Assembly: GCA_964592375.1 (NCBI GenBank)
Contig: CAZQDP010000002.1
Span: forward strand, 10,369-74,368
Source: an uncultured Eubacteriales bacterium
GTDB taxonomy: Bacteria; Bacillota; Clostridia; RUG12999
Direction of reading: 5' to 3'
DNA length: 64,000 nt
A program made the translations under genes and the position numbers. Shown piece after piece: positions 3,841 to 59,735 of the stretch. Position 1 is the first letter of the stretch, and every line of letters begins with the position of its first letter. The notes under the pieces are model-generated. The model did no database searches. It was not told the DNA's origin and worked only from the letters and a program-made list of their open reading frames with translations.

Positions 3841-3853
3841 GATATCATATAGA

Positions 3854-23310: not shown

Positions 23311-23586
23311 CAAATTTTTTCCTTTCAAAGCGATATTTTTAATGAAGTTATTCTCTTTATTATATCGCACAATGCCTGCCGGTTACTACTGCATTTATCA
23401 CCAAAATTAATATTAGATTCTATGGAATATGCACAATTGTATTTACTCTCATCGCAAATGATAAACGAAAAAGGAAATTTTAATCAAATAGGAAAAGAAA
23501 AGCCAAACAAAATACAAAATAATGATAAAGACAGCAACCTAGAAAGTAGATATAATAAATATTGAGATAGATGGGAGGAGTCAGAT

Positions 23587-24312: not shown

Positions 24313-24572
24313 GCAAGTCATAAGCACTGCAGTGCTGCGCTAAAAAAAACATCTTATAAACGAATACATTTGCAACTTGCAAGTTATCTTTTTTTGTCAT
24401 CCATTTTCTTTCATGCCAAAAAAATTACCTTATATTTGCACAAATGGAATAGGGGATAAGGATAGAATTTCTACATTTTAAGATAGGAATTTTACATTGA
24501 CTATTGGTGTAGCATATACTATAATAGCACTAGAATATACATTTTTCGCATGAATGAAAAATGGAATAGGAT

Positions 24573-36134: not shown

Positions 36135-37202
36135 ATGGAATATATCATGGATAAGCAAAGAGCAATAAGGCTGCAAAAAGCGCTACTTGGCTGGTATGAT
36201 GAGAATAAGCGTGACCTGCCTTGGCGGCATACGACAGAGCCATATCAAATATGGGTTTGCGAAGTAATGGCACAGCAGACGAAAATAAATGCGCTTCTGC
36301 CTTACTTCAGGCGTTTCATGCTACGTTTTCCTACCGTGGAGCTGCTGGCAAATGCAAAGGAAGAGGAAGTGCTAAAGGTATGGGAAGGCCTCGGGTATTA
36401 TGCAAGAGCGAAAAATCTTCATAAGGCATCGATGCGAGTGATGAAGGATTTTGGTGGGCGCATTCCAAGCACAAAGCAGGAGCTACTTAGCATAGAAGGG
36501 ATTGGCGAATATACTGCAGGCGCAATTTTAAGCATTGCCTTTGGGCAAAGAGCTCCGGCAGTAGACGGAAATGTACTGAGAATATTTGCAAGAATTGAAA
36601 GTAGCGCACTTGACATTGCCCTTGCACATGCAAAGGATATTGCCGGCGGGTTTGTTTTATCCATGATGCCGTCGGTGCGTACCGGCTGTTTTACGCAGGC
36701 CCTTATGGAGATTGGCGCACTGGTGTGCACCCCCAAAAACCCAAACTGCACTGCTTGTCCGGCGCAGAGGTTATGCAGAGCATATGCAAAAGGTATGCAA
36801 CACAAGCTGCCGATTAAATCCAAAAAAGCGCCACCCCGACACCTGGAAAAAACAGTCCTGATTATCCGTAATGAGGCGGGGCAAGTATTGCTTAAGAAGC
36901 GTACCGAAAAGTTACTTGGCGGTCTATGGGAATATTATATTGTTGAAAGAAAAATGGATAGTAAAAAGGCAAAGCAGTTTGTTAAAGCACTGGGGTATAT
37001 TGTGGAAAGTGTCGTCCCAATCGGGCCGGCACAGCACGTATTTACCCATTTGGTCTGGCACATGGAGGGGTATTATTGCAAGGTCAAGGGAAATGACCTG
37101 CCGCCCGATTATGTGTTTTTAGATTTAGAAGTGCTTGATGAAATTCCCATGCCAACGGCACTTTCCGTGTATACCAATTATCTCAGCCGGAATTTAGAAT
37201 AG
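36135..37202 (+). CDS. mutY: A/G-specific adenine DNA glycosylase.
   Basis: HhH-GPD (EVMAQQTK...LGYYARA), a 4Fe-4S loop CTPKNPNCTACPAQRLC, and a C-terminal MutT-like domain. Confidence 0.9.
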   Translation: MEYIMDKQRAIRLQKALLGWYDENKRDLPWRHTTEPYQIWVCEVMAQQTKINALLPYFRRFMLRFPTVELLANAKEEEVLKVWEGLGYYARAKNLHKASMRVMKDFGGRIPSTKQELLSIEGIGEYTAGAILSIAFGQRAPAVDGNVLRIFARIESSALDIALAHAKDIAGGFVLSMMPSVRTGCFTQALMEIGALVCTPKNPNCTACPAQRLCRAYAKGMQHKLPIKSKKAPPRHLEKTVLIIRNEAGQVLLKKRTEKLLGGLWEYYIVERKMDSKKAKQFVKALGYIVESVVPIGPAQHVFTHLVWHMEGYYCKVKGNDLPPDYVFLDLEVLDEIPMPTALSVYTNYLSRNLE

Positions 37203-37224
37203 CGGAGATTAGTATAAAACAAAA

Positions 37225-37250
37225 GGCGGACGATAAACATCGTCCGCCTC
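37225..37250. terminator. Bidirectional hairpin terminator between mutY and the giant gene.
   Basis: Stem ggcggacg-ataaacat-cgtccgcc. Confidence 0.6.
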
Positions 37251-37364
37251 ATCATAACCACATATCCCATCATGGGGTTTTGAATGCGAAACATGAAAAT
37301 TTCGCATTCTTTTTACTATTCATAACAGAGTATAAAATGCCAAAGGCTTTTTTGCGAAAATATT

Positions 37365-40300
37365 TTACTGATCATATACCTTTACATTATCAATATACAA
37401 ATCCGTATTAGAGCCTAAGGTAAATGTGCCGAATGCAATCTGACTTAGTGATTTCGTAGGATTTCTAAATGATTTATCGGAAACCTTCAGCACACCATCC
37501 ACATACCAATCCGTAGTATTGTCTACAATATTGGCAACAACCTTTATTTTATACCATCGATTTTTTGATGTTGAAGACATGATGGTATAATACGTTGAAT
37601 CCATCTGAATAGACGTAATAGAGTTTGAAATGAAGGAAGATACATTATAGCCTTCCCCGTTTAGATACACCAGCTTACCGCCAGCTCTATCATACATAAA
37701 GTCAAATTCCACCACTGCAGTATCTGTTAGCCGCTGGAAGTTTGCGGTGATATCCACACTGCCCGGGTCATTGTCTACCTTGATGTGTACGCACTGTCCC
37801 GATTCCGTATTCGCAGGAGCACCGGTGGGTCTTGGAATAATCTTCACAAAGCCGCCGGCAGGGGCAGTTCCAACAGTCCACTTGGTGGAGTTGAAAGCTT
37901 CGTTTGCAGTATAGCTTTCAAAGGTCTCATCAAATACACTTATCTTATCAAGAACGGAAATATTCGCCGTGAGAACCTTGTTGCCACCGGTGGCCGGTAT
38001 TGTAACGGTAAGGGTTGTGTCACCCTGTGCAATTCCTTTGATGCTAGAAGCACTTGGTAGCTGCATCACCGCGGTGTTTCCTGAGCTGAGGGTATACATA
38101 TCCGGAGTGATAACCGTATTTTTGCCGTCAATCACCGCCATGACAGTCATAGACATGACTTGATTGATTTTTAAGGTAAGAGGAGTGGACGGATTAAAGG
38201 ACACGGTTCCGATGCGATCAAGGCTCAGCTGCTTCGCCTGCTGCGTTACCGTAAGTCCAAGGATCACAGCAGTAGCCGCATTTGCGCTATCCCCTGAGAA
38301 CACAAAGCTGCCGACAGTGGCTTGCCCAAAAACGATACTTACACTTTGTCCCACACTCGTCCATGTGATGCCGTTCGCAGAAGTATAGGCATATATGGCA
38401 CTGCCGACTTTGGCAATTTTTAAGTAGGGATTGGTGGTATAGCCTAAATCAACACTCGTCGTGCTCACATTGGTTGTTGCGCGGTATTCTAGGAAGAGTT
38501 TTCCATCTGTTCTTTTGCGAAGTGCGGCAAAGATTGCATTGGTTGCCGGACCCTCTCTTACCATCACGCCGCCACCGGTGCCCAATGGGCCTTCCAGCCG
38601 CTCTACAGCAGCAGATACGCTGTAATCTCGAAGCATTGGCGAGTCAATGTACTTATACGCATAGGTGAGGCTATCCTGCTTGCCTGAGTCGTTTTGCGTA
38701 TAGGTATTCATGCCTTTTCCGGTAGACTTCATCAAAATTCTGCCGCCTTCCATCATGGCACTGCCGGTGGGAGCGGGGTTACCTACATTGAATGCCGAAT
38801 ATTCCTTTGGAAGAATAAAGCTTCCACGCTCGTTTTGGGCACGCTTTGTAAAGGAAATGATAGCCCATTCTGCCATGCTGTCAATCGACGCGCTATACTT
38901 ACCCGAGGCAAAGCCAAGCGTAAGCTTTTGAGGTGTTTTGCCGGGACGATACAGCCATGCTTCGGGGTTTTCCGGAACAAATGCTGAAGATATGGAAACG
39001 GATAAATTTTCAGGCTTGCTATATCCGTCGTTACTGATGATATGCAGTGAGGTATCCCCGTTTTGCGCTCTGCGAACCACGCTATACACATCCGAAGCAC
39101 CCAGTACCGTGGCAGCATCTCGTGCACTAATAAAGGTACTGTTCACGCTACCTTTGTCTACAAGCGTAGCACCGCAGCCTTGCACCGCAGCCTTATCCTC
39201 TGCAGAGAAGGAATTGATATCGGAATAGGTGAGCACATAGTCAAGTCCCCCAAGCTGTTCTTTTTGAATAGTATAAAGCGGATAATCCGAATTATAGTTG
39301 GCCATGAGCAGTTTAAAGGGAACACCGGCATTAAACAAATTCATCACAAAATCCTTGATGGCACCTGTATTGGTAACGGTAATATCTGCCCAGTTAACCA
39401 AAACGCCTACCTTTGCGGGAATTTCTCTACCGTCGAACAAAGTAGCATTTTCGCGAATAAACTGATATATATCGCCGTACTCTTCTATTGTGCCAAAATA
39501 TCGTGGCACATCGGTTCCCGGAAGCCATATATCCCAAGGAACCAACATATATTGCCCCATAGCATACGCCTGCGCAATCGCTGGGCGCACCAGTTCTTTG
39601 GTTCTTTGCGTAACAACCGGAGAGATGATAATCGGCGTTCCGATACTTGTTCGAATGCTGCCGCCTGTTACAATATTGGTCAGGCTGTGTGCGCCTTCGT
39701 TGTGCTCGGTAATGCCGTAATCAAAGGATTGCCCCATATACTGATCCGTAAGAATAATGTCATTGACAGACATGGCATTCATATTGACAGACAAAGTAAT
39801 ATTTCTACCGGCATAGGCATTCATGGCACTGCGCAAATTTGCGTAGTACTGCTCGGAGGTATACATTTGAAACTTCTTAAACCACGTGTTGGTAGCCCCA
39901 AGCGTAGTGGTGCGCTGAGATGTATAATCGTTATTGGTGGTAATTCCTTTTACAAGGATAAACTGCTTATAATCAAATGTATCAATATCTGTAATGCCAA
40001 GTTCGGTAATTTGTGCGGAAGTTAAATTGCTTTTTAAATAATTTCGAAATCCAGTGATGCAATCAGGGCAGAAGCATCCCGGCGCCCAACCTATCATCCC
40101 ATAGTTGCCTGCCGCATCGTCATGCTGGAATTCTGTGGCACCTGCATCAATGGTCGTTTTGGCGATAGCTAAAGCAGCATTGTAATAAGCAGGTCTGCTC
40201 AGGCAGCCCCAGTAAGAAGGGGGTGTCCACGTCATCCACGGAGCGACAATCTTCGTGCCTTCCAAGCTAAGAGCCCAACCATCTGTTACTTGATTGATGG

Positions 40301-42215
40301 TGTTGAGTGAGCCTTGAAAACTCACGCCCAGTGCAGTGATGTTTTGGATTTGCGTATTATTTGTAATATAGGACCATTTATCTCCTGTTGCCATAAAGCG
40401 CTTGATGGCATCGAGTGAATTGATGTCTCCACCGTAGTCACCTGGATTTGTTCTGTACCATCTATTGGACAAAAATACAGCGGAGTAAGGGTTCGCCGCT
40501 ACTTTGGTTTGTGCAAGTGGGATTGGAGAGGAAAAAGAATTATCCCAAAGCATCACGGAGATGCTGTATCTCCCTTTGTGGGTTGGCATATTAAGGGATA
40601 TTGAGCTCAAATTCGAGATGCCAGAAACGACATTTACACTTCGCATAATTTTAATATCTTCCACCTTTGTGCCGTTACGCACAATGGCAATGAGTGCTGC
40701 GGTAAGCGCTTTGCCGGTGGTGTTGGCAGCGGTGGTGGTCAGCGTGACGGACGAGGAGCTTGCCAAAAGTCCGGAAGCCACCGAGGAGAGCGTTACACCC
40801 TTTTTTGCAACATCCAAAGGCTCACCGGCATAGACCATGAAGTTATCAAAACTGCCTCTGAAGGCACCAGATCCGGCGGGAGTGGATACAACAATGCCTT
40901 TGAGCGTAGCGGCTGCTGCCGCATTGGTATAAGGCAGAGGAGAAGCATTACACTTCACGCCGCCAATATACATATCATAAACGGACAAGCTTTTGCTAAT
41001 TCTGATTTGAACGGTATTAAAATCCGTAATGCTACCTAAGGAATATCCCTTGATTGTTGTAGCCTCTAATGGCAGCGATATGATATTTACTTCAGGGCCT
41101 GTGCCACCTGCACTTCCCTTGACGTTAAAGTAAAAGGGGCTGGTGGTAGAGGCCGGCTTATAATCAAAGGAAACGGTTGTAATATCATTGCTCGAAGAAA
41201 ACGGAATGGTAAGCAGATTTTTGGAAGTAGCATTTGTATTTACTTCAATATATGTATTAAATGCATCCTGCTTTCGTACAAACATACCGGTATCACTGCC
41301 TAGGCTACCGCTATATACGGTATCGGCAAGCTGCAACGGCAGGTTAAGCGGCTCGTACACGGTATATCCGGCCGGAGGCGCAGGGGTTGGCACAAGCACC
41401 GGTGCCTGTGTTGAAAAAGGGGTGGGCGAGGGTGAAGGAGTGGGAGTAACATAAAGGGCAGGGTTATACATGATCAGATTATCAATATAAAAAACACCAG
41501 CGCCTGCAGCATTGCCACTGCCAATAGAGGTTTTATAAATTTTGGCATGAAGAACAGGTGGAACAGGTGGAACAGCTGTGCTTGGTCTGAACAGTATCCA
41601 ATCGGAATTAGATGAGCCGTCCACAGAAAAGCGGTATTTTTGATTTGGTACATCCGTCTCAATTTTTGCTCGATGCCATTGGCCGATGACTGCGGCGCGA
41701 TTAATATCCGTGCCGCTACCGGTGGGAGCGACAACAGGCGCCACATTGCCGCCATTTGTAGCGCTAACACCTACCGGATACGGCCAGCTCACTTCTCTGC
41801 TGTACATCATCACATTTCCGGTCGTCTGGGATGCAGTATCCATATAAAAATCATATTCGGTGATAAAAATGCCGCTTTGGTCGGCATAGCTACTGGTAGC
41901 AAGATTAGCCATGGCTTGAATAAGAGGCGCGGTACCCGTTGGAGGCGGCGTTGTGCCCAAATGCTCAATTCGCAACACCTTTCCGCGGGAGGAGTCGCCT
42001 GGGTCATTGGCGATGGTTACCTTTGAAAGCGCGGAAACGGTAGAACCATTTGACCATGGTGCCTGCACGTTACCGACCGTGTAGGTTTCAAACTTTTCTT
42101 CATAAATCACGCCGGGAGCTGCGGCAAAGCTTTCCTCGCTACCAAAAAGGCCGGGGAACGCTGCCAATTGCACCGCAAAAACAAACAATAAAACCAAAAA
42201 GATTTTTCTAAGCAT
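37365..42215 (-). CDS. Giant secreted protein (1616 aa). Order: signal peptide, N-terminal copy of an unknown jellyroll-like domain, PT-rich linker, large central glycosidase-like catalytic region of unassigned family, beta-sandwich and Ig-like (Big_2-like) domains, and a C-terminal second copy of the same domain.
   Basis: Start MLRKIFLVLLFVFAVQLAAFPG. Linker TPTPSPSPTPFSTQAPVLVPTPAPPAG. Central region with HDDAAGNYGMIGWAPGCFCPDC. Big_2-like TLKINQVMSMTVMAVIDG...TLTVTI. The N-terminus (YEEKFETY...W...IANDPGD...EYDFYMD...YRFSVDG) and C-terminus (FDETFESY...WTVGTAPAGGFVKI...VDNDPGS...EFDFMYD...WYKIKV...WYVDGVLKV) are homologous to each other and to the C-terminus of the 1228-aa protein. Confidence 0.75.
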   Translation of the reverse strand: MLRKIFLVLLFVFAVQLAAFPGLFGSEESFAAAPGVIYEEKFETYTVGNVQAPWSNGSTVSALSKVTIANDPGDSSRGKVLRIEHLGTTPPPTGTAPLIQAMANLATSSYADQSGIFITEYDFYMDTASQTTGNVMMYSREVSWPYPVGVSATNGGNVAPVVAPTGSGTDINRAAVIGQWHRAKIETDVPNQKYRFSVDGSSNSDWILFRPSTAVPPVPPVLHAKIYKTSIGSGNAAGAGVFYIDNLIMYNPALYVTPTPSPSPTPFSTQAPVLVPTPAPPAGYTVYEPLNLPLQLADTVYSGSLGSDTGMFVRKQDAFNTYIEVNTNATSKNLLTIPFSSSNDITTVSFDYKPASTTSPFYFNVKGSAGGTGPEVNIISLPLEATTIKGYSLGSITDFNTVQIRISKSLSVYDMYIGGVKCNASPLPYTNAAAAATLKGIVVSTPAGSGAFRGSFDNFMVYAGEPLDVAKKGVTLSSVASGLLASSSSVTLTTTAANTTGKALTAALIAIVRNGTKVEDIKIMRSVNVVSGISNLSSISLNMPTHKGRYSISVMLWDNSFSSPIPLAQTKVAANPYSAVFLSNRWYRTNPGDYGGDINSLDAIKRFMATGDKWSYITNNTQIQNITALGVSFQGSLNTINQVTDGWALSLEGTKIVAPWMTWTPPSYWGCLSRPAYYNAALAIAKTTIDAGATEFQHDDAAGNYGMIGWAPGCFCPDCITGFRNYLKSNLTSAQITELGITDIDTFDYKQFILVKGITTNNDYTSQRTTTLGATNTWFKKFQMYTSEQYYANLRSAMNAYAGRNITLSVNMNAMSVNDIILTDQYMGQSFDYGITEHNEGAHSLTNIVTGGSIRTSIGTPIIISPVVTQRTKELVRPAIAQAYAMGQYMLVPWDIWLPGTDVPRYFGTIEEYGDIYQFIRENATLFDGREIPAKVGVLVNWADITVTNTGAIKDFVMNLFNAGVPFKLLMANYNSDYPLYTIQKEQLGGLDYVLTYSDINSFSAEDKAAVQGCGATLVDKGSVNSTFISARDAATVLGASDVYSVVRRAQNGDTSLHIISNDGYSKPENLSVSISSAFVPENPEAWLYRPGKTPQKLTLGFASGKYSASIDSMAEWAIISFTKRAQNERGSFILPKEYSAFNVGNPAPTGSAMMEGGRILMKSTGKGMNTYTQNDSGKQDSLTYAYKYIDSPMLRDYSVSAAVERLEGPLGTGGGVMVREGPATNAIFAALRKRTDGKLFLEYRATTNVSTTSVDLGYTTNPYLKIAKVGSAIYAYTSANGITWTSVGQSVSIVFGQATVGSFVFSGDSANAATAVILGLTVTQQAKQLSLDRIGTVSFNPSTPLTLKINQVMSMTVMAVIDGKNTVITPDMYTLSSGNTAVMQLPSASSIKGIAQGDTTLTVTIPATGGNKVLTANISVLDKISVFDETFESYTANEAFNSTKWTVGTAPAGGFVKIIPRPTGAPANTESGQCVHIKVDNDPGSVDITANFQRLTDTAVVEFDFMYDRAGGKLVYLNGEGYNVSSFISNSITSIQMDSTYYTIMSSTSKNRWYKIKVVANIVDNTTDWYVDGVLKVSDKSFRNPTKSLSQIAFGTFTLGSNTDLYIDNVKVYDQ

Positions 42216-42297
42216 AACTCACACTTCTTTCTTGAATACAGCATTTACTTAGAGAAGAGAAAAAGAAATTGGTAAACGCTTGCATACTTTTTATGAC

Positions 42298-43650
42298 TTA
42301 TATAATAATTCCATTATTTTTAATGACATCACGATACCAGTGTGCACTGCGCTTTAAGGTGCGCTTTTGGGTTTCGTAATCCACATGCACAATGCCAAAG
42401 CGTTTTGTATACCCAAAGCCCCATTCAAAATTGTCCATCAGAGACCACAAATAGTATGAATCCACATTGGCGCCATCTTCAATGGCTTGATGCATGGCCA
42501 AAATATGCTTATGAATATAATCAATGCGTCCGTCATCCTCAATATTTCCGTTGCGATTGATAATATCACGTACACACGCGCCGTTTTCCATAATGCGCAC
42601 AGGAATATTATTATAATTATTTTTGAGGCTAATTAGTAAATCATACAAAGCCTCAGGCCATATTTCTCCTCCGGTTTCTATTCTGTCTCTTCCCTGAGAC
42701 ACATTGGCACCTTCTAAGGGCCATGCCGAGGGTTCATGACGAATGTAAGCACAGGTATAATAGTTTATGCCCAAAAAGTCTGTGGGAGTGGATATGATTT
42801 TCATATCCTCCGCCTTCACTTCTGGCAATATAATCCCCTTTTTCTCATACCACTGCCATGTATCTTGAGGATAAGCTCCTTTTAAAACCGGATCGCAGAA
42901 CCATCTATTAGCAAAGCCGTCTTCTCTTTTGGCGGCGGCAATATCCTCCGGCGCATCGGAGGCCGCATAGCGTGGCAACATGGCATTGCATATGCCGATT
43001 TCAGCCTTTTTCCCGCTTTGTCTTAAGGCTTGCACCGCTTTACCATGAGACAAAAGCAAATGATGGGCAACCTGTAGGGCTTCGGAAAAATCCTTGTGGG
43101 CAGGTGCAATATATCCGTACCAATGCCCCGTAAAGGTGGTTACCCTCGGTTCATTGTGGGTGAGCCACAAAGGAACCATATCCCCAAGCTCTTTGTACAT
43201 CAAAGCGGCATATTCCTGAAAATAATCACAAATATCTCTGTTTGCCCATCCGCCCTTATCCTGCAAAGCTTGCGGAAGATCCCAATGGTACAAGGTCACC
43301 GCCGGCTTGATGCCGTTTTTAAGTAGTGTTTCGGTCAGTTTTTTATAAAAGTCAATGCCCTTTTGATTGACCTGTCCAAAGCCGGAGGGCATGACTCTTG
43401 GCCAAGATATGGAATAACGGTAGGCTTGAAGGCCAATCTGCTTCATGATGGCCACATCTTCTTCATAAAGGTGATAGTGATCACAAGCGACATCGCCGGT
43501 TTTTCCGTCCTCTATTTTGCCGGGCATATGGGTAAATCTGTCCCAAATAGATTCGCCTTTTCCATCTTCATTCCATCCGCCTTCTATTTGGTAGGAGGCA
43601 GTGGCACTTCCCCAAGTAAATCCTTTCGGAAAGTTCTTTTGCATACTCAA
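42298..43650 (-). CDS. GH1 beta-glucosidase (second copy).
   Basis: [19 protein letters not shown] and IMENG motifs. Confidence 0.9.
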
Positions 43651-43686
43651 AAATCATCACTCTTCCTTATATTGTTATTTTTGTAT

Positions 43687-44367
43687 TTATATAATTTCTT
43701 CTTCATTCTGCCTTTGCATGGCGGGGCGAAACTGCGAAAAAGCAAGGTGCAAGAGTTTTCTTACGGCAAGCAGTCCAAGATCCAGCATTAGGATAAGGAT
43801 AAGACAGCCATTCATCATAAATGGAGCGAGTTTGCCGTGATTGGCTTTTGCAAATATTTGAGGCACATAGCGTGCTACCTCCCAACGATACACATAAAAT
43901 GAAGGAATGGCAGAGGAGGTGCCCGCTATTTGATCAATTGACCATAATTTACCATATACAATAAACCGACATTTGTTGGTAATGGCATGGTAAAAATGGT
44001 CAAAAGGGTTGTTGCCTACAAGAGACAGTCTCTCTGGGTCTATTTGCAGTTTGGCCGGGAATAACCCTGTTAAAGCTTCCATGCCGCCAATCACCTTTGC
44101 ATTGGAATATTTCGGAGCGTATTCGATAAGAAGCTTGCGCTCATTAAATTCCCCTGAGGATTCAGAAGACCATTGCACAGGCAAAAGACCCCATGCCAAA
44201 AAGGTTAAAGACAGCGCCCAGAGTAGTAGCCGTGCCGCCACGACCTTTCTTTGCAGTACAAACACAAGCATGCACTTTAGGCAAGGCACTATCTTTTTGA
44301 AAAATGACACTGCCGTTTTGATTTTTATGTACAAAGAATTCTTCTGCATAGTCAATTGGAATATCAT
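43687..44367 (-). CDS. Hypothetical membrane-anchored protein (N- and C-terminal TM segments), family not recognised.
   Basis: 226-aa ORF lying between the CE4 deacetylase and GH1 on the same strand with gaps of 46 and 36 nt. Confidence 0.45.
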   Translation of the reverse strand: MIFQLTMQKNSLYIKIKTAVSFFKKIVPCLKCMLVFVLQRKVVAARLLLWALSLTFLAWGLLPVQWSSESSGEFNERKLLIEYAPKYSNAKVIGGMEALTGLFPAKLQIDPERLSLVGNNPFDHFYHAITNKCRFIVYGKLWSIDQIAGTSSAIPSFYVYRWEVARYVPQIFAKANHGKLAPFMMNGCLILILMLDLGLLAVRKLLHLAFSQFRPAMQRQNEEEII

Positions 44368-44413
44368 TCCTTCTGCTTTGGTTTTCTATGGTAAAAAACG
44401 CACGCTATATCAG

Positions 44414-45295
44414 TTACGGAATAATAACACCGAAAACAAAGCCTACGTTTTTAAGATATTCAATGCAATAGTCTAAGGTTTCTACCGTGTACATATGCGC
44501 CATGGTATCATGCATCAGTACCACGACATCTTCTTTCGCACTACAAGTGGAAACCAAGCTTTCAATAACCCGATCTTGGGAGGCGGGTTTGCCGTCCGAA
44601 TCGCTGTTGACAGCGTTCCAGTCCAAATACGCATAGTCTGTTGTAGGAAGTAGCTGCCGAAAGTGTGCTTTTTTTTGTTCAAAAGAGCCGCCGGGAAAAC
44701 GAAAAAGCTTCACAATATTCTCTCGTCCGATTACCTCTGCCAGGGTATCTTCGCAGGCTTGCAATTCATATAAAAAGCTTTTTGTACTTGCGTATACATT
44801 GCCATAACGATGAGAAAAAGAGTGGTTGGCAATCAGGTGACCTTCGGCATAAGCCCTTTTTGTGATTTCGGGATATAGCTTTACCTGGCTTCCCACACAG
44901 AAAAAAGTGGCACGAATATGGTGCTTTGCCAATATATCAAGGATGGGTGCTGTATTGGGTGTGGGGCCATCGTCAAATGTCAGATAAGCTACTTTTATGC
45001 CATCCCCCTCGCTGATACAGCTTGGGAGCAGATCTGCCTGCATAGCTGAGGATACACGAACGACCATCAAGGGGGTAGGGGATGGCAATAGCAGGGGTGG
45101 AATATTTTGCTCATATTCAGCGCGTGGATTTTCCGATAAAAAATCAGTTGCATGTGCGCTTGTGGGAATGGGAAGGCTGATGGTATAGACCACAATCATC
45201 GCAACAGCGGATAGGGAAACCAGACCATATATCGCTGTACTCAATATATTGACCATGTGCCGGCCAGGCTGCAAGAAATCACAGATATATTTCAT
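44414..45295 (-). CDS. Membrane-anchored polysaccharide deacetylase (CE4 / NodB homology).
   Basis: N-terminal TM, then AYLTFDDGPTPNT...RATFFCVG...HSFSH (NodB motifs TFDDG, H-x-x-x-H). Confidence 0.85.
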   Translation of the reverse strand: MKYICDFLQPGRHMVNILSTAIYGLVSLSAVAMIVVYTISLPIPTSAHATDFLSENPRAEYEQNIPPLLLPSPTPLMVVRVSSAMQADLLPSCISEGDGIKVAYLTFDDGPTPNTAPILDILAKHHIRATFFCVGSQVKLYPEITKRAYAEGHLIANHSFSHRYGNVYASTKSFLYELQACEDTLAEVIGRENIVKLFRFPGGSFEQKKAHFRQLLPTTDYAYLDWNAVNSDSDGKPASQDRVIESLVSTCSAKEDVVVLMHDTMAHMYTVETLDYCIEYLKNVGFVFGVIIP

Positions 45296-45502
45296 TTTTT
45301 GTCCTTTACATGTATGGATTACCCCAAATGCTGATGTTAATAAACCTTTTGTAAAGGCAAGTGACGTAGCTGAGCGACTTTGGGCATAATTTAACTTTTA
45401 TTATTCATATAATTATAAATAGAATACTCCAATGTTATTATACACAATATTATATGAAAAATCAAGAGGAAAACGTTGAAAAATACAATATAATTTATTA
45501 TA

Positions 45503-46426
45503 ATGGAGTTGAAAGGATGGGTGAACCCATTGAAGAAGATGTTATCGCTATTTTTAGCATTGCTACTAAGCACAGGATGCATGCCTCATTCGCTAAGTGA
45601 CCAAAAGTCCAAAGAGGATTTGTCAAAGGCGATGCCCCAAAGCACGGCAAATTCGCCTATGCCACCTAACACACCTTCTACTGCCTTGCCACAGCGCACA
45701 AATACTCCGACTTCCTCTCTGGCACCTTCAGTAAAGCTGAGCAACGCCAAAATCGGATGGGGAATGAAAAAGAACAAGGGGGCGGCCCCGGAGGTATCTT
45801 CCTCCCTCGCTCAGATGCTGAAGAAATATGATGCATATTACATAGGACAAACAAATGAAAAGGTACTGTATTTGACCTTTGATGAAGGATACGAAAATGG
45901 CTATACATCGCAGATACTGGACACGCTGAAAAGCAATCGGGTCCCTGCCGCATTTTTCATTACAGGACCGTACTTAAAAAAAGAAAAAGAGCTTGTGCGA
46001 CGTATGGTTGAGGAGGGTCATGTCGTTGGGAACCACACAGTCAATCATCCGAGCATGCCCGATATTTCCCAGATGAAGATGGAGGATGAATTGCTACTGC
46101 TGGATAGAACCTTCAAAGAATATTTTGGGCAGGATATGGACTATGTGCGCCCTCCCAAGGGGGAATTTAGCGAGCGTACGCTCAGCGATACCCGAGAGCT
46201 TGGCTATCAAACAATTCTGTGGAGCTTCGCATATGCCGATTGGGATACAAAGACGCAAAAAGGGGCGGATTATGCCTATCGCGAGGTCATGGATTATTTG
46301 CACCCCGGTGCGATCATCCTACTTCATGCCGTATCATCGGATAATGCGGGTGCACTGGATAAAATTATCAAAGATGCACAAGGCCTTGGCTACACATTTA
46401 AAAGCCTAGACAATCTGTCGCAATAG
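45503..46426 (+). CDS. Lipoprotein polysaccharide deacetylase, PdaA-like (delta-lactam-biosynthetic de-N-acetylase family).
   Basis: Lipobox LLSTGC. LTFDEGYENGYTSQILDTLK...AAFFITG...VGNHTVNHP closely resembles PdaA-type CE4 enzymes. An alternative ATG start is at 45539. Confidence 0.75.
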   Translation: MELKGWVNPLKKMLSLFLALLLSTGCMPHSLSDQKSKEDLSKAMPQSTANSPMPPNTPSTALPQRTNTPTSSLAPSVKLSNAKIGWGMKKNKGAAPEVSSSLAQMLKKYDAYYIGQTNEKVLYLTFDEGYENGYTSQILDTLKSNRVPAAFFITGPYLKKEKELVRRMVEEGHVVGNHTVNHPSMPDISQMKMEDELLLLDRTFKEYFGQDMDYVRPPKGEFSERTLSDTRELGYQTILWSFAYADWDTKTQKGADYAYREVMDYLHPGAIILLHAVSSDNAGALDKIIKDAQGLGYTFKSLDNLSQ

Positions 46427-46455
46427 AAGCGAAAAATAAGTGAAAATAGACCCAT

Positions 46456-46497
46456 AATCAAACATGAGCCCACGTGCTAGGGCTCATGTTTGATTAT
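46456..46497 (+). terminator. Rho-independent terminator after the pdaA-like gene.
   Basis: Stem aatcaaacatgagccc / gggctcatgtttgatt. Confidence 0.65.
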
Positions 46498-46544
46498 TAA
46501 AGCCATATTCAAAGAAGTAAAATAGCGAATTTTAAAAAAAAATC

Positions 46545-46574
46545 TTGAAATATGCTATTTAAATGTGCTATAAT
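46545..46574 (+). promoter_or_regulatory. Sigma-A promoter (TTGAAA-N18-TATAAT) for glmM-glmS.
   Basis: Hexamers at 46545-50 and 46569-74. Confidence 0.5.
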
Positions 46575-46617
46575 GATTTTAATATAAAAGATGAAAGAAA
46601 TATAAAGGAGTGTTCAC

Positions 46618-47970
46618 ATGGGGATATTGTTTGGAACGGATGGAGTGAGAGGGATTGCCAATACCGAACTAACACCCGAACTCGCTTTTAAGCTTGGTAG
46701 GTACGGCGCACATGTACTGACAGGGCATTTAAGCCATAAACCTCGTATTATTGTTGGCAGGGATACTCGTATATCGGGAGATATGTTAGAGTCTGCATTG
46801 GTTGCAGGGATATTATCGGCAGGCGCTCATGCGGATGTTTTAGGCGTTGTGCCAACACCGGCTGTTTCGTATCTTACTAGAAAATATAATGCGGATGCAG
46901 GGGTGGTTATTTCTGCTTCGCACAATTCAGCCCAATATAACGGAATAAAATTTTTCAATGCGGATGGCTTTAAGCTCAGTGATGCCATGGAGGATGAAAT
47001 TGAGACCTATGTGCTCGGTCAAAAGGAAATGGAGGAAATTCCTTGGGGAGCGAATATCGGGCGTAAAACTCGTATGCCGTCCGATGCAGAGGAAGACTAT
47101 GTGGCCTTTGCCATTTCCACTGCACCCTGCTCACTTTCTGGATTAAAGGTGGCGGTGGACTGTGCCAACGGAGCGGCATATCGAGTGGCAACGCAGGCAC
47201 TTACAAGACTTGGAGCGGAGATTTCAATTATTTTCAATGACCCCGATGGGATCAATATCAATGAGGACTGTGGCTCAACACATACCAAAAGGCTAAAAAG
47301 CTTTGTGGTAGAAACAGGAAGTGATATCGGCATTGCTTTTGATGGAGACGCAGACCGGCTTATCGCCATTGATGAAACCGGAAAAACTATTAATGGAGAT
47401 ACCATTATGGGTCTTTGTGCCATGCAGCTCAAAGAAAAAGGCAATCTCAAAGGCGCCCTGGTGGCTACGGTGATGAGTAATTTGGGCCTCAGCTTGGCTT
47501 GTGAGCAACAGGAAATTGAAGTGGTGCAAGCAAAGGTGGGCGATCGGTATGTGCTGGAGGAAATGGTTGCAAGAGGATGTAATTTAGGCGGAGAGCAGTC
47601 GGGGCACATTATCTTTTTGGATTACAATACCACGGGGGACGGCCTCATTACCGCTATTCAGCTTTTGTGCATGCTCAAAGAAAAGGGGATGCCAGCTTCC
47701 CAAATGGCAAAGAGGATTTCTATTTTGCCTCAGGTGCTGGTCAATGTGAAAATTCAAAACAAATATAAAGAGTCCATGATGTTAGATCCCGAGGTGGCGG
47801 CCTTTATCAGCCGGTTGGACCGCAAATACGATGGGACAGGCAGAGTGCTGGTCAGACCTTCCGGAACGGAGCCACTTGTCCGCATTATGATAGAAGGACA
47901 GGATAAGGATGAAATGAAAGAGGATGCTTACAATTTGGGGCAGCTTCTGGAAAATAAATTTGGTCAATAA
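46618..47970 (+). CDS. glmM: Phosphoglucosamine mutase.
   Basis: GTDGVRG and the active-site SASHNS, 450 aa. Confidence 0.95.
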   Translation: MGILFGTDGVRGIANTELTPELAFKLGRYGAHVLTGHLSHKPRIIVGRDTRISGDMLESALVAGILSAGAHADVLGVVPTPAVSYLTRKYNADAGVVISASHNSAQYNGIKFFNADGFKLSDAMEDEIETYVLGQKEMEEIPWGANIGRKTRMPSDAEEDYVAFAISTAPCSLSGLKVAVDCANGAAYRVATQALTRLGAEISIIFNDPDGININEDCGSTHTKRLKSFVVETGSDIGIAFDGDADRLIAIDETGKTINGDTIMGLCAMQLKEKGNLKGALVATVMSNLGLSLACEQQEIEVVQAKVGDRYVLEEMVARGCNLGGEQSGHIIFLDYNTTGDGLITAIQLLCMLKEKGMPASQMAKRISILPQVLVNVKIQNKYKESMMLDPEVAAFISRLDRKYDGTGRVLVRPSGTEPLVRIMIEGQDKDEMKEDAYNLGQLLENKFGQ

Positions 47971-47997
47971 CAGTAACAGAAAGGAACGTGACAAAAC

Positions 47998-49824
47998 ATG
48001 TGCGGAATAGTAGGATACATAGGAAAAAAGCAGGCTGCACCCATACTACTGAGTGGTCTTAAAAAACTGGAATACAGAGGATATGATTCTGCCGGCGTTG
48101 CCATCTTATCGGACAAAAAGATTGTGGTAGAAAAAACAAAAGGACGACTGAGCGTTTTAGATGAGAAACTAGATGGCGGAAAATTAATTTCCGGCAACAT
48201 TGGCATTGGCCATACCCGTTGGGCAACGCATGGAGCACCTTCAGATGTCAATTCTCATCCGCATTTATCAAAAAAAGGCACCATTGCAGTTGTGCATAAT
48301 GGCATTATCGAAAATTATTTAAGGCTGAAGGGTTTTTTAATTGAGAATGGATATACTTTTTTATCGGATACAGACACAGAGGTTATCTCGCATTTGATGG
48401 ATTATTACTACGAAGGCGATATTGTGGATGCCCTCATTAAGACCATCGGCAAGCTGGAAGGCTCGTATGCGCTTGGTATTGTATCCTCCGATCATCCCGG
48501 CGAGATGGTTGCCGTGAGAAAAGACAGTCCGCTCATTGTTGGAATTGGGGAGACGGAAAACTATATAGCCTCTGATATTCCGGCAGTTTTGGAATACACA
48601 AGGGACGTTTATCTGCTGGAAGACAAGGAGATTGTGCGTTTTGTCGGCAGTGAAATTACCATCATGGACCTTGATAAAAAGGTCATTCAAAAAGAAATAT
48701 TTAAGGTCAATTGGGATGTATCTGCTGCTGAAAAGGGTGGCTATGAGCATTTTATGTTTAAAGAAATTATGGAACAGCCCAAGGCTATTCGAGATACCAT
48801 CAGCCCTCGCATTCAAGATGGGAAAATTGTACTTGATAATATCAGCCTCACGGATGAGGATATTACCGCCATTGAGCGTGTGTTTATTGTGGGTTGCGGC
48901 TCCGCATACCATGTTGGTGTGGTGGGAAAATATGTTATTGAAAAACTCGCCCGTATTCCGGTGGAAGTGGATTTGGCTTCGGAATTCAGATACAGAGAGC
49001 CTATTGTGGGGAAAGACGATTTGGTCATTATCATCAGCCAGTCGGGCGAAACGGCAGATACACTGGCGGCACTCAGAGAAGCGAAAAGACGCGGAGCGAG
49101 AATTTTATCCATCATCAATGTGGTGGGCAGCTCCATTGCAAGAGAATCGGATGATGTGCTCTATACTTGGGCCGGACCTGAAATTGCCGTAGCCACCACC
49201 AAGGCTTACAGCACCCAGATGGACGCCCTGTTCCTCATTGCAATGCACCTTGGTAAAAGCAGAAAAACCATGTCGATAGCGCTGGAAGAGGAGCTCATTC
49301 GTGAGCTTGTGCTCCTTCCAGAAAAAATATCCCGGATTGTTGATAATCAGACCGAACTTCAAGAATATGCAGCCAAGCATTTTAATGTGAAGGATGTATT
49401 CTTCTTAGGTCGTGGACTGGACTTCTGCGTTGCACTTGAAGGCTCGCTCAAGCTGAAGGAAATCTCCTACATCCATTCGGAGGCCTATGCGGCAGGAGAG
49501 TTGAAGCATGGTACGATCTCGCTGATTGAAGAAGGCACAATGGTGATTGCGCTTGCAACCCAACCAAACCTTTTTGATAAAATGCTCAGTAATATTAAAG
49601 AGGTAAAGGCAAGAGGTGCCATGGTACTTGCCATTGCCATTGAGGGAAATACAGAAATGGAAAAAGAAGCGGATTTTGTATATTATATACCTAAAACCCA
49701 CGAACTCATCGCACCGGCCATTGCGGTTGTGCCACTGCAAATTTTTGCGTATTACATGTCCGTGAATAAGGGCTGTGATGTGGATAAACCTCGTAATCTT
49801 GCGAAATCGGTTACAGTTGAGTAA
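47998..49824 (+). CDS. glmS: Glutamine--fructose-6-phosphate aminotransferase.
   Basis: MCGIVGY N-terminal nucleophile followed by two SIS domains, 608 aa. Confidence 0.95.
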   Translation: MCGIVGYIGKKQAAPILLSGLKKLEYRGYDSAGVAILSDKKIVVEKTKGRLSVLDEKLDGGKLISGNIGIGHTRWATHGAPSDVNSHPHLSKKGTIAVVHNGIIENYLRLKGFLIENGYTFLSDTDTEVISHLMDYYYEGDIVDALIKTIGKLEGSYALGIVSSDHPGEMVAVRKDSPLIVGIGETENYIASDIPAVLEYTRDVYLLEDKEIVRFVGSEITIMDLDKKVIQKEIFKVNWDVSAAEKGGYEHFMFKEIMEQPKAIRDTISPRIQDGKIVLDNISLTDEDITAIERVFIVGCGSAYHVGVVGKYVIEKLARIPVEVDLASEFRYREPIVGKDDLVIIISQSGETADTLAALREAKRRGARILSIINVVGSSIARESDDVLYTWAGPEIAVATTKAYSTQMDALFLIAMHLGKSRKTMSIALEEELIRELVLLPEKISRIVDNQTELQEYAAKHFNVKDVFFLGRGLDFCVALEGSLKLKEISYIHSEAYAAGELKHGTISLIEEGTMVIALATQPNLFDKMLSNIKEVKARGAMVLAIAIEGNTEMEKEADFVYYIPKTHELIAPAIAVVPLQIFAYYMSVNKGCDVDKPRNLAKSVTVE

Positions 49825-49924
49825 TCAGATAGGCGCATTTGCACTTTCACAATGTAGAAGGGTCGGATTGTCCGGCCCTTCTTTTTGAATTCATCCAGGA
49901 ATAAATAGGAAGAAGGTGAGGATA

Positions 49925-51892
49925 ATGAGAAAAAGAGCACCATATATTGCTATTATTTTTATGATGGCGTTGCAGTTTTTTGCTTTGATACCGACCATGG
50001 CAGCGGAGCTACCGGGTGCCTTCTGGAAGGTCAATGACCTGTATGCGGCAGCGGTGGAACAAAAAAATGATGAAAAAATTCTTTACTATGCACAGCAGGA
50101 ACTGGATCTGCTCCGTCCCCTGTCAAAAACAGAGCAGATAGTGGAGATTTTAGCCTCACGACTGGATCAAATGGGACTTGCCGCAGAACGGCTTGGCAGG
50201 CATCGGGAAGCGGCCGTTTACCTGCAAGAATACCTCCCCTATGCACAGCAAAAGGGCTGGGCGGATGGGGTGAAGATTGCAAAAGCTAAAATATTGCAAT
50301 ACACCCCTGTGCTGGACTTGTATACCACAACAGGGGAGCCTCAAAAGGTTTACGGTGCAAAAGGAGAACCAAAATCCGGCGTTCTCTTTGGCACAACATC
50401 GGACAGTAGCCTGCAGGGAGGCTCTTTAAATGAAAGTATGATACTCCTATACATGGAATTTGGTAATAATGATACAAGGTGGCTTGAAAAATGTCTTTTG
50501 GAGGCGAAGGCGCATGGCAAGGCGGTAGAATTGGCGCTTAACGTGCCGGGCGAGGGTACTCAAATTCCGGAGGTTACAAGCAAAGCGGAGTATGTTGCCA
50601 GTATTTTGAAGCTCATCAACGCCCATCCGGACGTGCAGGTATATCTGCGGTTTGGGGCAGAAATGAATATTTGGAACACCCTTGCAGAGCCAAAAGCATA
50701 CATTGAGGCATTTCGTTTTATCGCTACGCTTGCCCATGAAATAGCACCCAACGTGGCCATGGTATGGAGCGTGAACCAATGCTCTATGTGGAATGTGGAG
50801 ATGAACGATTATTATCCGGGGGATGAATATGTGGACTGGGTAGGCGTATCCGCATATATGCAGAAGTATTTTTTGGGAAGAAACAACTGGGCGGAAGAAG
50901 AACGGTTTAATGAAGTGGTTTTTTTGACGGGAAATAATGCAGATCCCGTCAAAGCTTTAAGCGAGGTCATTGCGAAATATGCAGATAGAAAACCCATCAT
51001 GCTTGCAGAATCAGGAAGTGCTCACTTTGTGCGCACGGTGGGAGAGGATACAACGCAGTGGGCCATTGACTACCTACATAGAATGTATCACTATATCCCC
51101 ATGGTATACCCGGAGGTGAAGCTCATTGCCTATTTTGATAAGGTGATGCCAAACGAGGTAAACGATTATGCACTCTCGTCAAATGAAAGACTCACCGATG
51201 CGTATCAAGCGCTGACTGCTCTACCCACCTTTATTCATGGTACTTGGCAAAATAGCCCTGAGGTTATTTATCAAAAGTGCCCTCCTGTCATTGAAGTAGA
51301 GGATAACACGAAGCCATTGCCAATTGGTGCCTATGTGCACCTATATGGCATTCAAAAGCCAAAAATTGATTATTATATTGATGATCAGTGGGTAGGAGGC
51401 CAAAACGAAGTACCATATAGCCAACAAATCAATTTAACCTCGTTTTCAGAAGGGTCACACAGCCTGCGAGTGAGAGCAGAATACAATAAAGACATTTTAC
51501 TGGAAAAGAACTATACGCTCCAAATCCACAGTGCGTCTCCAATTCGAATTGTGCTAAACGGGAAGCCGGTTAACACAGACGTTGCACCGATTACGGAAAA
51601 TGACAGGACCTTGGTACCCGTTCGAGTGATTTCCGAGGCATTAGGCTTTGTGGTGGAGTGGAAGGGGTCAGAACAAAAAATCACCATTACCAATAATCAA
51701 AAAGAAATTGTACTTATGGTGGGAAGCCTACGGGCGATGGTGGACCAAAAGCAAATCATGATGGATGTGCCGCCAATATTAAAAAAGGATAGAACAATGG
51801 TGCCCATTCGGTTTATTGCCGAAAATATGGGCTGTGAGGTTTCTTGGGATGCACCGTCGCGTTCGGTTCTCATTATAAAGCCTATCACATAG
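49925..51892 (+). CDS. Secreted GH26-like glycoside hydrolase (mannanase-like) with two C-terminal copper-amine-oxidase-N-like stalk repeats.
   Basis: Signal peptide MRKRAPYIAIIFMMALQFFALIPTMAA. LRFGAEMN (GH26 acid/base region R-F/P-G-H/A-E-M-N) and MLAESG (nucleophile region). C-terminal repeats DRTLVPVRVISEALGFVVEW and DRTMVPIRFIAENMGCEVSW. Confidence 0.65.
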   Translation: MRKRAPYIAIIFMMALQFFALIPTMAAELPGAFWKVNDLYAAAVEQKNDEKILYYAQQELDLLRPLSKTEQIVEILASRLDQMGLAAERLGRHREAAVYLQEYLPYAQQKGWADGVKIAKAKILQYTPVLDLYTTTGEPQKVYGAKGEPKSGVLFGTTSDSSLQGGSLNESMILLYMEFGNNDTRWLEKCLLEAKAHGKAVELALNVPGEGTQIPEVTSKAEYVASILKLINAHPDVQVYLRFGAEMNIWNTLAEPKAYIEAFRFIATLAHEIAPNVAMVWSVNQCSMWNVEMNDYYPGDEYVDWVGVSAYMQKYFLGRNNWAEEERFNEVVFLTGNNADPVKALSEVIAKYADRKPIMLAESGSAHFVRTVGEDTTQWAIDYLHRMYHYIPMVYPEVKLIAYFDKVMPNEVNDYALSSNERLTDAYQALTALPTFIHGTWQNSPEVIYQKCPPVIEVEDNTKPLPIGAYVHLYGIQKPKIDYYIDDQWVGGQNEVPYSQQINLTSFSEGSHSLRVRAEYNKDILLEKNYTLQIHSASPIRIVLNGKPVNTDVAPITENDRTLVPVRVISEALGFVVEWKGSEQKITITNNQKEIVLMVGSLRAMVDQKQIMMDVPPILKKDRTMVPIRFIAENMGCEVSWDAPSRSVLIIKPIT

Positions 51893-58766: not shown

Positions 58767-59648
58767 ATGGCGAACAGAAGCAGATTTCATTTCGATTTGG
58801 TATACGAAGGCAAAAAGCAGCGGTATGGAGACATCATTTTGCTGCAAGCAGGGGATTTAAGCTGTGAGGCAGATTATAATGTGGGTCTTCACCGCCAATG
58901 GGGATATGAAATTACATATGTGGTATCGGGAAGAGGAAAATGCCAAATCGATGGTTTGCAATGCGATCTTGTGAAGGGAGACGTGCAGTACAGCCATATG
59001 TCGGAGATCCACAATATTATGTCGGATAGCAAGGATCCTATTCGGTTTTTTTATATCGCCTTTGATCTTGTGCCGGAGCAGACCGGGGCACTTGGGGAAA
59101 TGCTTCAATACCTTGAAAAAACGCCTCGCAGAATTGTGAAGGAACGATTTGACCTTTACGCTAAATTTACCGCCATATTTGGCGAGTTGATTGACAATCA
59201 CCCATATAGCAGCACAGTGCTCCATCATCTCATTGAAAATATTATCATCTATACATACCGAAGCTTTTTTCTTGATCAAAATCATCTGTATAATCCCAAG
59301 GCCTACAAAGGGAGTATTGCATATGATATTATGCATTACATCGACTGCAATATCGAGAAGGTGCAAAAACTTTCCGATGTTACCGCAGAGTTCGGATACA
59401 ATTATAGTTATATTTCTCGTCTTTTTTCAAAAATCACCGGTTTCTCGCTGAAGGAATATGTGGAAACACGCAAATTTTCAAAGGCGAAGGATATGCTGGT
59501 GGGCAGTGACCTATCCATTACCGACATCAGCGAGCAGCTGGGTTTTGGCTCTTTGCATATCTTTAGCCGTGCTTTCACGCGCCATTGTGGCATATCTCCT
59601 TCGGGCTACCGAAAAAAGGCCGTGATTTCTGATGTAAAGAAAAAATAA
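58767..59648 (+). CDS. AraC-family transcriptional regulator (cupin sensor plus HTH).
   Basis: C-terminal AraC HTH signature (ISRLFSKITGFSLKEY...FGSLHIFSRAFTRHCGISPSGYRK). Confidence 0.85.
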   Translation: MANRSRFHFDLVYEGKKQRYGDIILLQAGDLSCEADYNVGLHRQWGYEITYVVSGRGKCQIDGLQCDLVKGDVQYSHMSEIHNIMSDSKDPIRFFYIAFDLVPEQTGALGEMLQYLEKTPRRIVKERFDLYAKFTAIFGELIDNHPYSSTVLHHLIENIIIYTYRSFFLDQNHLYNPKAYKGSIAYDIMHYIDCNIEKVQKLSDVTAEFGYNYSYISRLFSKITGFSLKEYVETRKFSKAKDMLVGSDLSITDISEQLGFGSLHIFSRAFTRHCGISPSGYRKKAVISDVKKK

Positions 59649-59735
59649 TCAAATAGAAATATAATGTACATGGATTTTTACATTAGCAATTGTTATAATG
59701 ATAATATACTGATATAGAGAGGAATGAATAAAACC

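Follow-up and report, generated by a model that had tools for sequence, protein, structure and literature searches.

Deacetylases of the PdaA family make muramic delta-lactam in the spore cortex. In C. difficile, pdaA is dependent on sigma-G, and three further CE4 genes, CD1319, CD3248 and CD3257, are controlled by sigma-E (PMC3789822). SwsB, a muramic-delta-lactam cyclase, has the CE4 fold but carries an Asn in place of the catalytic Asp, together with an extra N-terminal domain (PMC12444981). Among polysaccharide-degrading enzymes, the GH96 alpha-agarases are the closest described relatives of a second group of proteins considered here; in one of them, AgaB, mutation of D333 and E468 abolishes activity (PMC10740060). 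Members of both groups have counterparts in a five-gene locus at positions 37365-46426 of a 64,000-nucleotide stretch of DNA from an uncultured Eubacteriales bacterium (contig CAZQDP010000002.1), referred to below as the window. An initial annotation, made from the sequence alone, had taken the five genes to be a single module for remodelling cell-wall or spore polysaccharide. We consider it more probable, at roughly 0.6, that the locus is composite, two units with separate functions lying side by side: a pair formed by pdaA and a CE4 gene, and a lineage-specific catabolic pair formed by the genes for a GH1 enzyme and a giant secreted protein.

Four of the five open reading frames (ORFs) lie on the minus strand. 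They encode a CE4 deacetylase (44414-45295), a putative membrane protein designated ORF3 (43687-44367), the GH1 enzyme (42298-43650) and the giant protein of 1616 residues (37365-42215), and are separated by 46, 36 and 82 nucleotides. A divergent plus-strand frame of PdaA type, at 45503-46426 in its longest form, faces them across a spacer of 207 nucleotides. The ORF listing agrees with the initial annotation on all five frames, their coordinates and the gaps, and the labels CE4 and GH1 were also correct. By itself, a run of four co-directional genes with short gaps is within chance.

The plus-strand protein scores 314.4 bits over its whole length against TIGR02884, the equivalog model for delta-lactam-biosynthetic de-N-acetylases (cut-off 298), and has the lipobox LFLALLLSTGC. 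The earlier description of a PdaA-type lipoprotein therefore stands, but its start at 45503 does not agree with the public annotation, in which the gene begins at GTG 45521 (45521-46426, plus strand) and encodes 301 residues. The 307-residue form starting at ATG 45503 is not in the public protein collection, and the -10 box of a sigma-A-like promoter (45476-45504) runs into this ATG. A further candidate start, TTG 45530, would give a protein beginning MKKML, matching the N-termini of orthologues (MKK...).

The CE4 protein has 293 residues and matches Polysacc_deac_1 (PF01522) at 1.8e-28, with 99.4 bits against a threshold of 23.1. All five CE4 motifs (YLTFDDGP, NHSFSH, FRFPGG, YLDWNA and VLMHD) are intact in a motif alignment, and hydropathy indicates an N-terminal membrane anchor at residues 14-46 preceding an extracytoplasmic catalytic domain. 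The protein meets no NCBIfam equivalog cut-off, scoring 109.2 bits against 400 for PgdA2, 100.1 against 237.4 for PdaB, 88 against 298 for PdaA and 51.2 against 391.5 for YlxY. Further PgdA models (NF045820-22) give 67.6 against 400 for PgdA1 and 86.3 against 800 for the Streptococcus PgdA. Assignment as PdaB (TIGR02764) or as PgdA (NF045820-22) was ruled out by these scores. SwsB, which we take to be represented by the YlxY model TIGR02873, was ruled out both by score and by the retention of the catalytic Asp in TFDDG. The nearest non-self homologue is only 46-48% identical. As predicted from its motifs and hydropathy, the protein is a catalytically intact, membrane-anchored member of a clade of its own, at about 40-48% identity.

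The genomic contexts of CE4 homologues represent five independent lineages. In three of these (L004/L005, L006/L015 and L007/L008) the CE4 gene lies head-to-head with a gene whose product passes the PdaA cut-off, at 315-316 bits on TIGR02884 versus 298. Identity between the lineages is 53-62% for the PdaAs and 40-47% for the CE4 proteins; L006 and L015, at 95% and 89% identity, were counted as one lineage. The PdaA of the window is 57-62% identical to its counterparts in L004, L006, L007 and L015. The suggestion that the two CE4 genes belong together is thus upheld by three other lineages. In L006/L015, glmM follows pdaA, as it does in the window, and in L004 the pair is flanked by spoIVB (Peptidase_S55; 4705-5961). 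L014 has no pdaA, and here spoIVB (3553-4791) is itself head-to-head with the CE4 homologue; the adjacency of spoIVB further links this CE4 clade to sporulation genes. In Clostridium cylindrosporum (L013) the CE4 gene is found beside a LytR-CpsA-Psr gene, with no pdaA pair. Since C. difficile expresses pdaA under sigma-G and three other CE4 genes under sigma-E control (PMC3789822), a sporulation role for the pdaA-linked CE4 protein is plausible by analogy.

Beyond the pair, conservation ends. On the 3' side of the CE4 gene, the pdaA-paired lineages have a shikimate kinase gene or a convergent aroB, and in none of the five contexts does ORF3, a GH1 gene or a GH96-like gene stand beside the CE4 homologue. 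None of the best 120 CE4 matches is on a contig of 45,689 nucleotides, the size of the contig carrying P0002, the only close homologue of the giant protein. The order CE4-ORF3-GH1-giant is likewise absent from the two contexts available for GH96-like relatives; two Logan assemblies (SRR12261223 and SRR12261224) contain DNA identical to the window, and these represent the same organism only. Scans of genome contigs with the giant protein and PdaA gave nothing relevant, only a 28%-identical CE4 protein from Gemmatimonadales, and no close relative genome. Since the pair recurs without ORF3, GH1 and the giant gene, the conserved unit is pdaA with its divergent CE4 partner, and the remaining three genes are specific to the lineage of the window. 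The check on gene order proposed in the initial annotation is therefore favourable for the pair and, in one lineage, for glmM, and unfavourable for everything 3' of the CE4 gene.

The giant protein begins with a signal peptide at residues 1-33 (ending in SFAAA; 42117-42215, minus strand, as are the segments that follow), of which residues 1-26 are hydrophobic. Next comes an N-terminal accessory region (residues 34-574; 40494-42116) which is beta-rich, includes a Pro/Thr linker, has no Pfam match and is not kept in most relatives. Residues 575-1125 (38841-40493) comprise a GH96-like (beta/alpha)8 barrel with alpha/beta and beta-sandwich domains, identified by profile comparison, AlphaFold2 (AF2) modelling and Foldseek. 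The C-terminal accessory modules (37368-38840) are a jelly-roll (1126-1318), a Big_2-like domain (1319-1420) and a module resembling LamG and the Sialidase-like carbohydrate-binding module (CBM; 1421-1616). Searched as a whole, the ORF falls into no family of Pfam or NCBIfam at a threshold as loose as E<=10, and a weak match to PF22585 is seen at residues 1536-1597. The signal peptide indicates that the protein is secreted. No anchor was detected (neither SLH nor Cu_amine_oxidN1 by Pfam, and no C-terminal LPXTG), and surface attachment is not claimed. The giant surface glycosidase-like enzyme of the initial annotation is thus retained as a secreted, hydrolase-like and now GH96-like protein, its surface location being set aside.

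An exhaustive HMMER search with the core (residues 560-1130) found 865 relatives at E<=1e-3, 124 of them at E<=1e-30, among 1.84 billion representatives. The best-matching of these show 37-42% identity and have lengths of 1000-1770 residues; only one close homologue, P0002 (1618 residues, 69% identity), exists among 5.8 billion clustered proteins. In BLAST alignments residues 575-1613 match about 20 representatives end to end at 27-34% identity, which argues that a module of about 1040 residues is the conserved architecture and that the N-terminal 575 residues are variable. Around the Pfam-less core, Laminin_G_3, Big_2, Sialidase-like_CBM or Cu_amine_oxidN1 domains are found in the relatives, the first three at positions matching the C-terminal modules of the giant protein. 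Residues ~1392-1613 are also 27% identical to the C-terminus (19696-20391) of the product of ORF 19684-23370, so that the LamG/CBM-like module appears to be common to large secreted proteins of this genome. Three more secreted proteins in the window have a Cu_amine_oxidN1 'stalk' domain: 19684-23370 (minus strand), with a beta-helix, 49916-51892 (plus), which is GH26-like, and 59724-60935 (plus), with no further domain.

Although Pfam has no model for the GH96-like catalytic domain, several comparisons converge on a single structure. Among sequences in the PDB, phmmer found one entry, 9m0b_A, the alpha-agarase AGA of Catenovulum maritimum, at E=1.5e-16 over residues 713-1122. A profile of 17 core sequences matches residues 265-767 of 9m0b at E=4e-49 (171 bits), and matches GH42 beta-galactosidases weakly around the QxDD...GGCFCxxC stretch. 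The AF2 model of the core, calculated with the alignment of these 17 sequences, has a mean predicted local distance difference test score (pLDDT) of 88.6 and a predicted template modelling score (pTM) of 0.88. In a Foldseek search of the PDB it retrieves 9m0b first (E=8.3e-32, TMq 0.77), with GH42, GH66 and fucosidase barrels next at ~1e-12, about 19 orders of magnitude behind.

Residues invariant in the family sit at strand ends: D699/D700 (QHDD), N811, E837 (GITE) and D895 (VPWD), with a cysteine cluster, GCFCPDC, after the QHDD motif. D699 aligns with D323 of 9m0b (MFD motif), which is probably the equivalent of AgaB D333, as judged from the numbering offset without an alignment to the AgaB sequence. 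The 'GE' of 9m0b (E458) aligns five residues off the invariant G836-E837, and AgaB E468 maps within five residues of E837; the alignment is ambiguous at this point. The clade has its own invariant active-site set, QHDD, GxxE and VPWD, and the Asp of the last motif (D895) aligns with an Asn in the alpha-agarase. The codon usage of the giant gene is typical of the genome (coding score 0.231), and its product is probably an active, secreted GH96-like hydrolase. Agarose is an unlikely substrate, since the gene clusters of relatives lack recognisable agar-pathway genes. That the 1616-residue protein belongs to an uncharacterised GH96-related clade which cleaves a polysaccharide other than agarose, and so represents a new specificity or subfamily, is a tentative proposal to which we give slightly less than an even chance.

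Relatives of the giant protein are found in a different kind of setting. An alignment-based homologue search returned only three proteins, and a metagenome scan with a second alignment two loci; two independent contexts are available, L002/L010 (one contig) and L009. In the first, on a contig from JGI, the gene for P0133 (37% identity) has as neighbours a LacI regulator, an HpcH/HpaI aldolase and a 2-hydroxyacid dehydrogenase, accompanied by two SLH proteins, two ABC permeases, a solute-binding protein and a second GH96-like giant. In the second, P0124 (41% identity) is bordered on one side by an AraC-type regulator, two permeases and a solute-binding protein, and on the other by a BNR/LamG protein, an amidohydrolase and three GFO/IDH/MocA oxidoreductases. 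Both are typical Gram-positive polysaccharide-utilisation clusters. No GH1, CE4 or ORF3 homologue was found in these loci by tblastn, and no CE4 or GH1 gene lies within 10 kb. The two giants of L002 (7483-10482 and 18582-20482) flank two SLH-domain proteins and the ABC transporter, an arrangement which suggests that the family takes part in multi-enzyme, cell-surface-associated degradation systems.

The GH1 protein matches PF00232 at 4.7e-175 and scores 608.7 bits with TIGR03356 (BGL) against a cut-off of 478.5, whilst all 6-phospho-glycosidase models fail (209-381 bits versus 561-686). Both catalytic motifs are present, the acid/base in NEP (166-168, E167) and the nucleophile in MENG. Hydropathy reveals no signal peptide. 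The protein is, on this profile and motif evidence, a cytoplasmic beta-glucosidase equivalog, and without a signal peptide it could not act on the wall. A second GH1 paralogue, 41% identical, is encoded elsewhere in the window at 7102-8478 (plus strand).

Between the CE4 and GH1 genes lies ORF3, of 226 residues, which is publicly annotated as a protein of 222 residues. It has no Pfam or NCBIfam match even at E<=10, and no homologue in any fetched locus. Hydrophobic segments at residues 42-65 and 179-210 are in keeping with the membrane protein noted in the initial annotation, and predict a bitopic or two-pass topology. The coding signal is weak: at 0.060 per codon it lies between the range of antisense ORFs (-0.167 to -0.032) and that of confident genes (0.084-0.368), and over codons 1-75 it is at or below 0. 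A single-sequence AF2 model (pLDDT 51.7) was unusable for fold search. The coding status of ORF3 is uncertain and its significance doubtful.

The control region from which the CE4 gene and pdaA diverge (45296-45520) is AT-rich, with 72-74% A+T. A simple scan for promoters and terminators gave no more sites than shuffled sequence, with 22 promoter-like sites versus 21.5 in shuffles and 13 terminator-like sites versus 10.5. The sole clear promoter outlier is the sigma-A-like site before pdaA, TTGAAA-17-TATAAT (45476-45504, plus strand), which scores 11/12, a value reached in 3 of 300 shuffles. A candidate for the CE4 gene, TTGATT-17-TATAAT (45465-45437, minus strand), scores 10/12, reached in 50 of 300. 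At the other end of the minus-strand block, the sole convincing terminator is a hairpin with a 12-bp stem, seven G-C pairs and a T-run at 37223-37250 (minus strand), 115 nucleotides past the stop codon of the giant gene. The one other strong hairpin, an 18-bp palindrome between pdaA and glmM (46454-46497), probably insulates pdaA from glmM-glmS, which has a sigma-A-like promoter of its own with an extended -10 element (46545-46574).

Sporulation-type promoters were sought with regular expressions and mismatch scoring, using B. subtilis-type consensus sequences for sigma-F, sigma-G, sigma-E and sigma-K, and compared with shuffles. One marginal site, GCATA-N17-CATATAA, lies 137 nucleotides before GTG 45521. 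Read as a sigma-G site it scores 10/11, a value that 43 of 300 shuffles attain; for the sigma-E reading the score is attained by 14 of 300. No such motif was found 5' of the CE4 gene by mismatch scoring. The search for sporulation promoters which the initial annotation had proposed for both genes thus yields one marginal candidate before pdaA, none of the matches standing out from shuffles. No sigma motif is common to the window and the orthologous pdaA/CE4 spacers, which are too diverged when aligned for conserved motifs. Sporulation-specific control of the locus is neither supported nor excluded by these searches.

Taken together, the composite reading would work as follows. In the first unit, two secreted CE4 enzymes encoded by a conserved head-to-head gene pair would act on peptidoglycan, the pair lying just 5' of the precursor genes glmM-glmS; the partner of PdaA would most likely N-deacetylate the sugars of peptidoglycan as the wall or spore wall is assembled. 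The second unit would be a lineage-specific addition 3' of the CE4 gene, made up of GH1 and the giant gene, with ORF3 between the CE4 gene and GH1. The LamG/CBM-like modules of the giant protein would most likely bind an extracellular polysaccharide, which would be cleaved in the TIM-barrel active site, where D699/D700, E837 and D895 are the candidate catalytic residues. A transporter encoded elsewhere would take up the resulting oligosaccharides, and GH1 would complete their breakdown. We also considered whether GH1 and the giant gene had recently been acquired by horizontal transfer; neither codon usage, which is native, nor GC content supports this.

Several observations weigh against this division. 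The 46-, 36- and 82-nucleotide junctions contain no terminator-like hairpin and no convincing promoter, so that the four minus-strand genes may form one transcript with coupled expression; the independent promoters and terminators which the initial annotation had named as a sign of a catabolic operon were therefore not seen in the three gaps. Co-transcription of the four genes, including read-through into GH1 and the giant gene from the CE4 promoter, is possible on this evidence. GH1 and the giant gene have no transporter or regulator here, unlike the relatives of the giant gene. Two of the five lineages (L013 and L014) lack the pdaA/CE4 pair, and only two independent contexts of giant relatives are available, that of P0002 not among them. 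Finally, the substrate of every enzyme in the locus is one that we infer.

The missing transporter and regulator, together with the lack of terminators, are the main reasons why other explanations have to be weighed. One of these treats the four minus-strand genes as a catabolic operon in which the CE4 protein would deacetylate an exogenous polysaccharide so that the giant protein can cut it, pdaA being a mere neighbour. The short gaps without terminators would suit such an operon, as would the failure of the CE4 protein to reach any peptidoglycan-deacetylase equivalog cut-off, and acetylxylan esterases and chitin deacetylases are among the members of the CE4 family (PMC5855634). However, the CE4 gene is head-to-head with pdaA in three lineages which have neither GH1 nor the giant gene, the nearest NCBIfam models of the protein are all peptidoglycan or sporulation deacetylases, and GH96-like clusters elsewhere are without CE4 genes. 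We regard this operon as unlikely.

The single module of the initial annotation, in which the CE4 enzymes would deacetylate wall or spore polysaccharide, the giant protein trim it from outside and GH1 recycle the fragments, draws on the same tight co-directional gaps without terminators and on the absence of a transporter or regulator from 37365-46426, which had been correctly noted. A genuine PdaA with a conserved CE4 partner, and the wall-precursor genes glmM, glmS and murB close by, also agree with it. Against this, gene order is unconserved past the CE4/pdaA pair, relatives of the giant protein reside in catabolic clusters with transporters and regulators and without CE4 or GH1, and no sporulation-type promoter stands out. 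Furthermore, GH1 is a generic cytoplasmic beta-glucosidase equivalog, and peptidoglycan fragments are not beta-glucosides. The inclusion of GH1 and the giant gene in a wall or spore module is thus not supported, and the five-gene version is improbable. It is just as improbable that GH1 and the giant gene are the decaying remnant of a polysaccharide-utilisation cluster, with transporter and regulator lost, ORF3 degraded and little present function: the missing partners and the weak coding signal, lack of homologues and poor model of ORF3 would fit, but neither GH1 nor the giant ORF of 4.85 kb is disrupted, both have native codon usage, the giant protein retains all family-invariant residues and has in P0002 a 69%-identical counterpart of the same length (1618 residues), and the second GH1 in the window shows active beta-glucoside use in this genome.

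The minus-strand block sits amid plus-strand housekeeping genes. Upstream of it in window coordinates are gltB, gltD, hsp18 and mutY, and downstream glmM, glmS, the GH26-like secreted protein, hprK, a ROK kinase gene, murB, rapZ and whiA, all on the plus strand. GC skew is positive across the region, so that the four minus-strand genes oppose the prevailing gene orientation. No sugar transporter is encoded anywhere within the 64-kb window, and the regulator gene nearest to the locus is of the AraC family (58767-59648). At 90% identity GlmS, GlmM, HprK, MurB and GltB are each singletons among ~15 billion proteins, which indicates that the organism belongs to a very sparsely sampled lineage, encountered otherwise only in the two sequencing runs named above. 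Rfam, searched at the gathering threshold and at E<=1 over 37000-48200, detected no riboswitch, glmS ribozyme or leader; glmM and glmS are 27 nucleotides apart, and the 191-nucleotide region 5' of glmM holds only the hairpin and the promoter described above. No cre (CcpA) sites are present in the locus, and their total in the window is not above chance. Elsewhere in the window are a T-box leader (124 bits; 19255-19514, minus strand) 5' of an isopropylmalate-synthase-like gene (17474-19183), a tetrahydrofolate (THF) riboswitch (75.8 bits; 9597-9694, plus strand) 5' of an ORF at 9771-10301, and, at 23587-26258 (plus strand), a glucosamine-6-P isomerase/6-phosphogluconolactonase-like gene followed by an alpha-L-fucosidase gene (GH29), a further small pair of glycan-related genes that has no transporter with it.

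Had the locus been a module for spore-wall remodelling, it would have represented a system of a new kind. Instead the evidence splits it into ordinary parts, each of a known kind (CE4, PdaA, GH1 and GH96-like), and the locus is not a new system. Two of these parts merit attention. Because the CE4 gene recurs head-to-head with pdaA in Clostridia that are deeply diverged, its product is a reasonable candidate for an extra step in the modification of spore or wall peptidoglycan, which would stand alongside CwlD, PdaA and SwsB; a weaker possibility is that it serves Clostridia as a dedicated spore-wall deacetylase which has yet to be named. The giant protein, for its part, points to a large clade in Gram-positive bacteria whose secreted GH96-like enzymes have no Pfam model and whose only characterised relatives are marine alpha-agarases.

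Parallels and differences can be drawn with each of the described systems. Like PdaA of B. subtilis and PdaA1 (CD1430) of C. difficile, the pdaA product of the window passes the TIGR02884 cut-off, is exported and has the CE4 motifs, including TFDEGYENGYT. It differs in having a lipobox and a long Pro/Ser/Thr linker, and its gene is preceded by a near-consensus sigma-A-like promoter and by no clear sigma-G promoter. For its partner, SwsB offers an attractive analogy as a second CE4-fold protein alongside PdaA in cortex synthesis (PMC12444981), but the window protein retains TFDDG, whereas SwsB has Asn and the additional N-terminal domain. With PgdA-type enzymes and the sigma-E-controlled CE4 proteins of C. 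difficile it shares membrane anchoring, an extracytoplasmic location and the full set of catalytic motifs; its nearest NCBIfam models are PgdA2 and PdaB, and its genes are linked to pdaA and spoIVB in several genomes. Unlike PgdA-type enzymes, it falls below all equivalog cut-offs and belongs to a clade defined mainly by its head-to-head position with pdaA.

In the same way, the second unit resembles Gram-positive polysaccharide-utilisation clusters in combining a secreted multidomain depolymerase with a cytoplasmic GH1 enzyme, and departs from them in that the two genes have neither transporter nor regulator and run head-to-tail with a wall-deacetylase gene. The giant protein and the GH96 alpha-agarases (9m0b; AgaB, PMC10740060) have a homologous catalytic module, consisting of a barrel and a C-terminal beta-sandwich, and both are secreted with accessory modules of carbohydrate-binding type. 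Identity is only 19-25%, however, and the accessory modules are LamG, Big_2 and Sialidase-like-CBM in the giant protein, as opposed to CBM6 or CBM2 in the agarases. The hosts also differ, a spore-forming clostridial-type bacterium on the one hand and a marine proteobacterium on the other, and the literature yielded no GH96 enzymes of non-marine origin. The giant protein also has D895 (VPWD) where the alpha-agarase has Asn, a difference at the active site, and GCFCPDC where the agarase has GDFSPYA.

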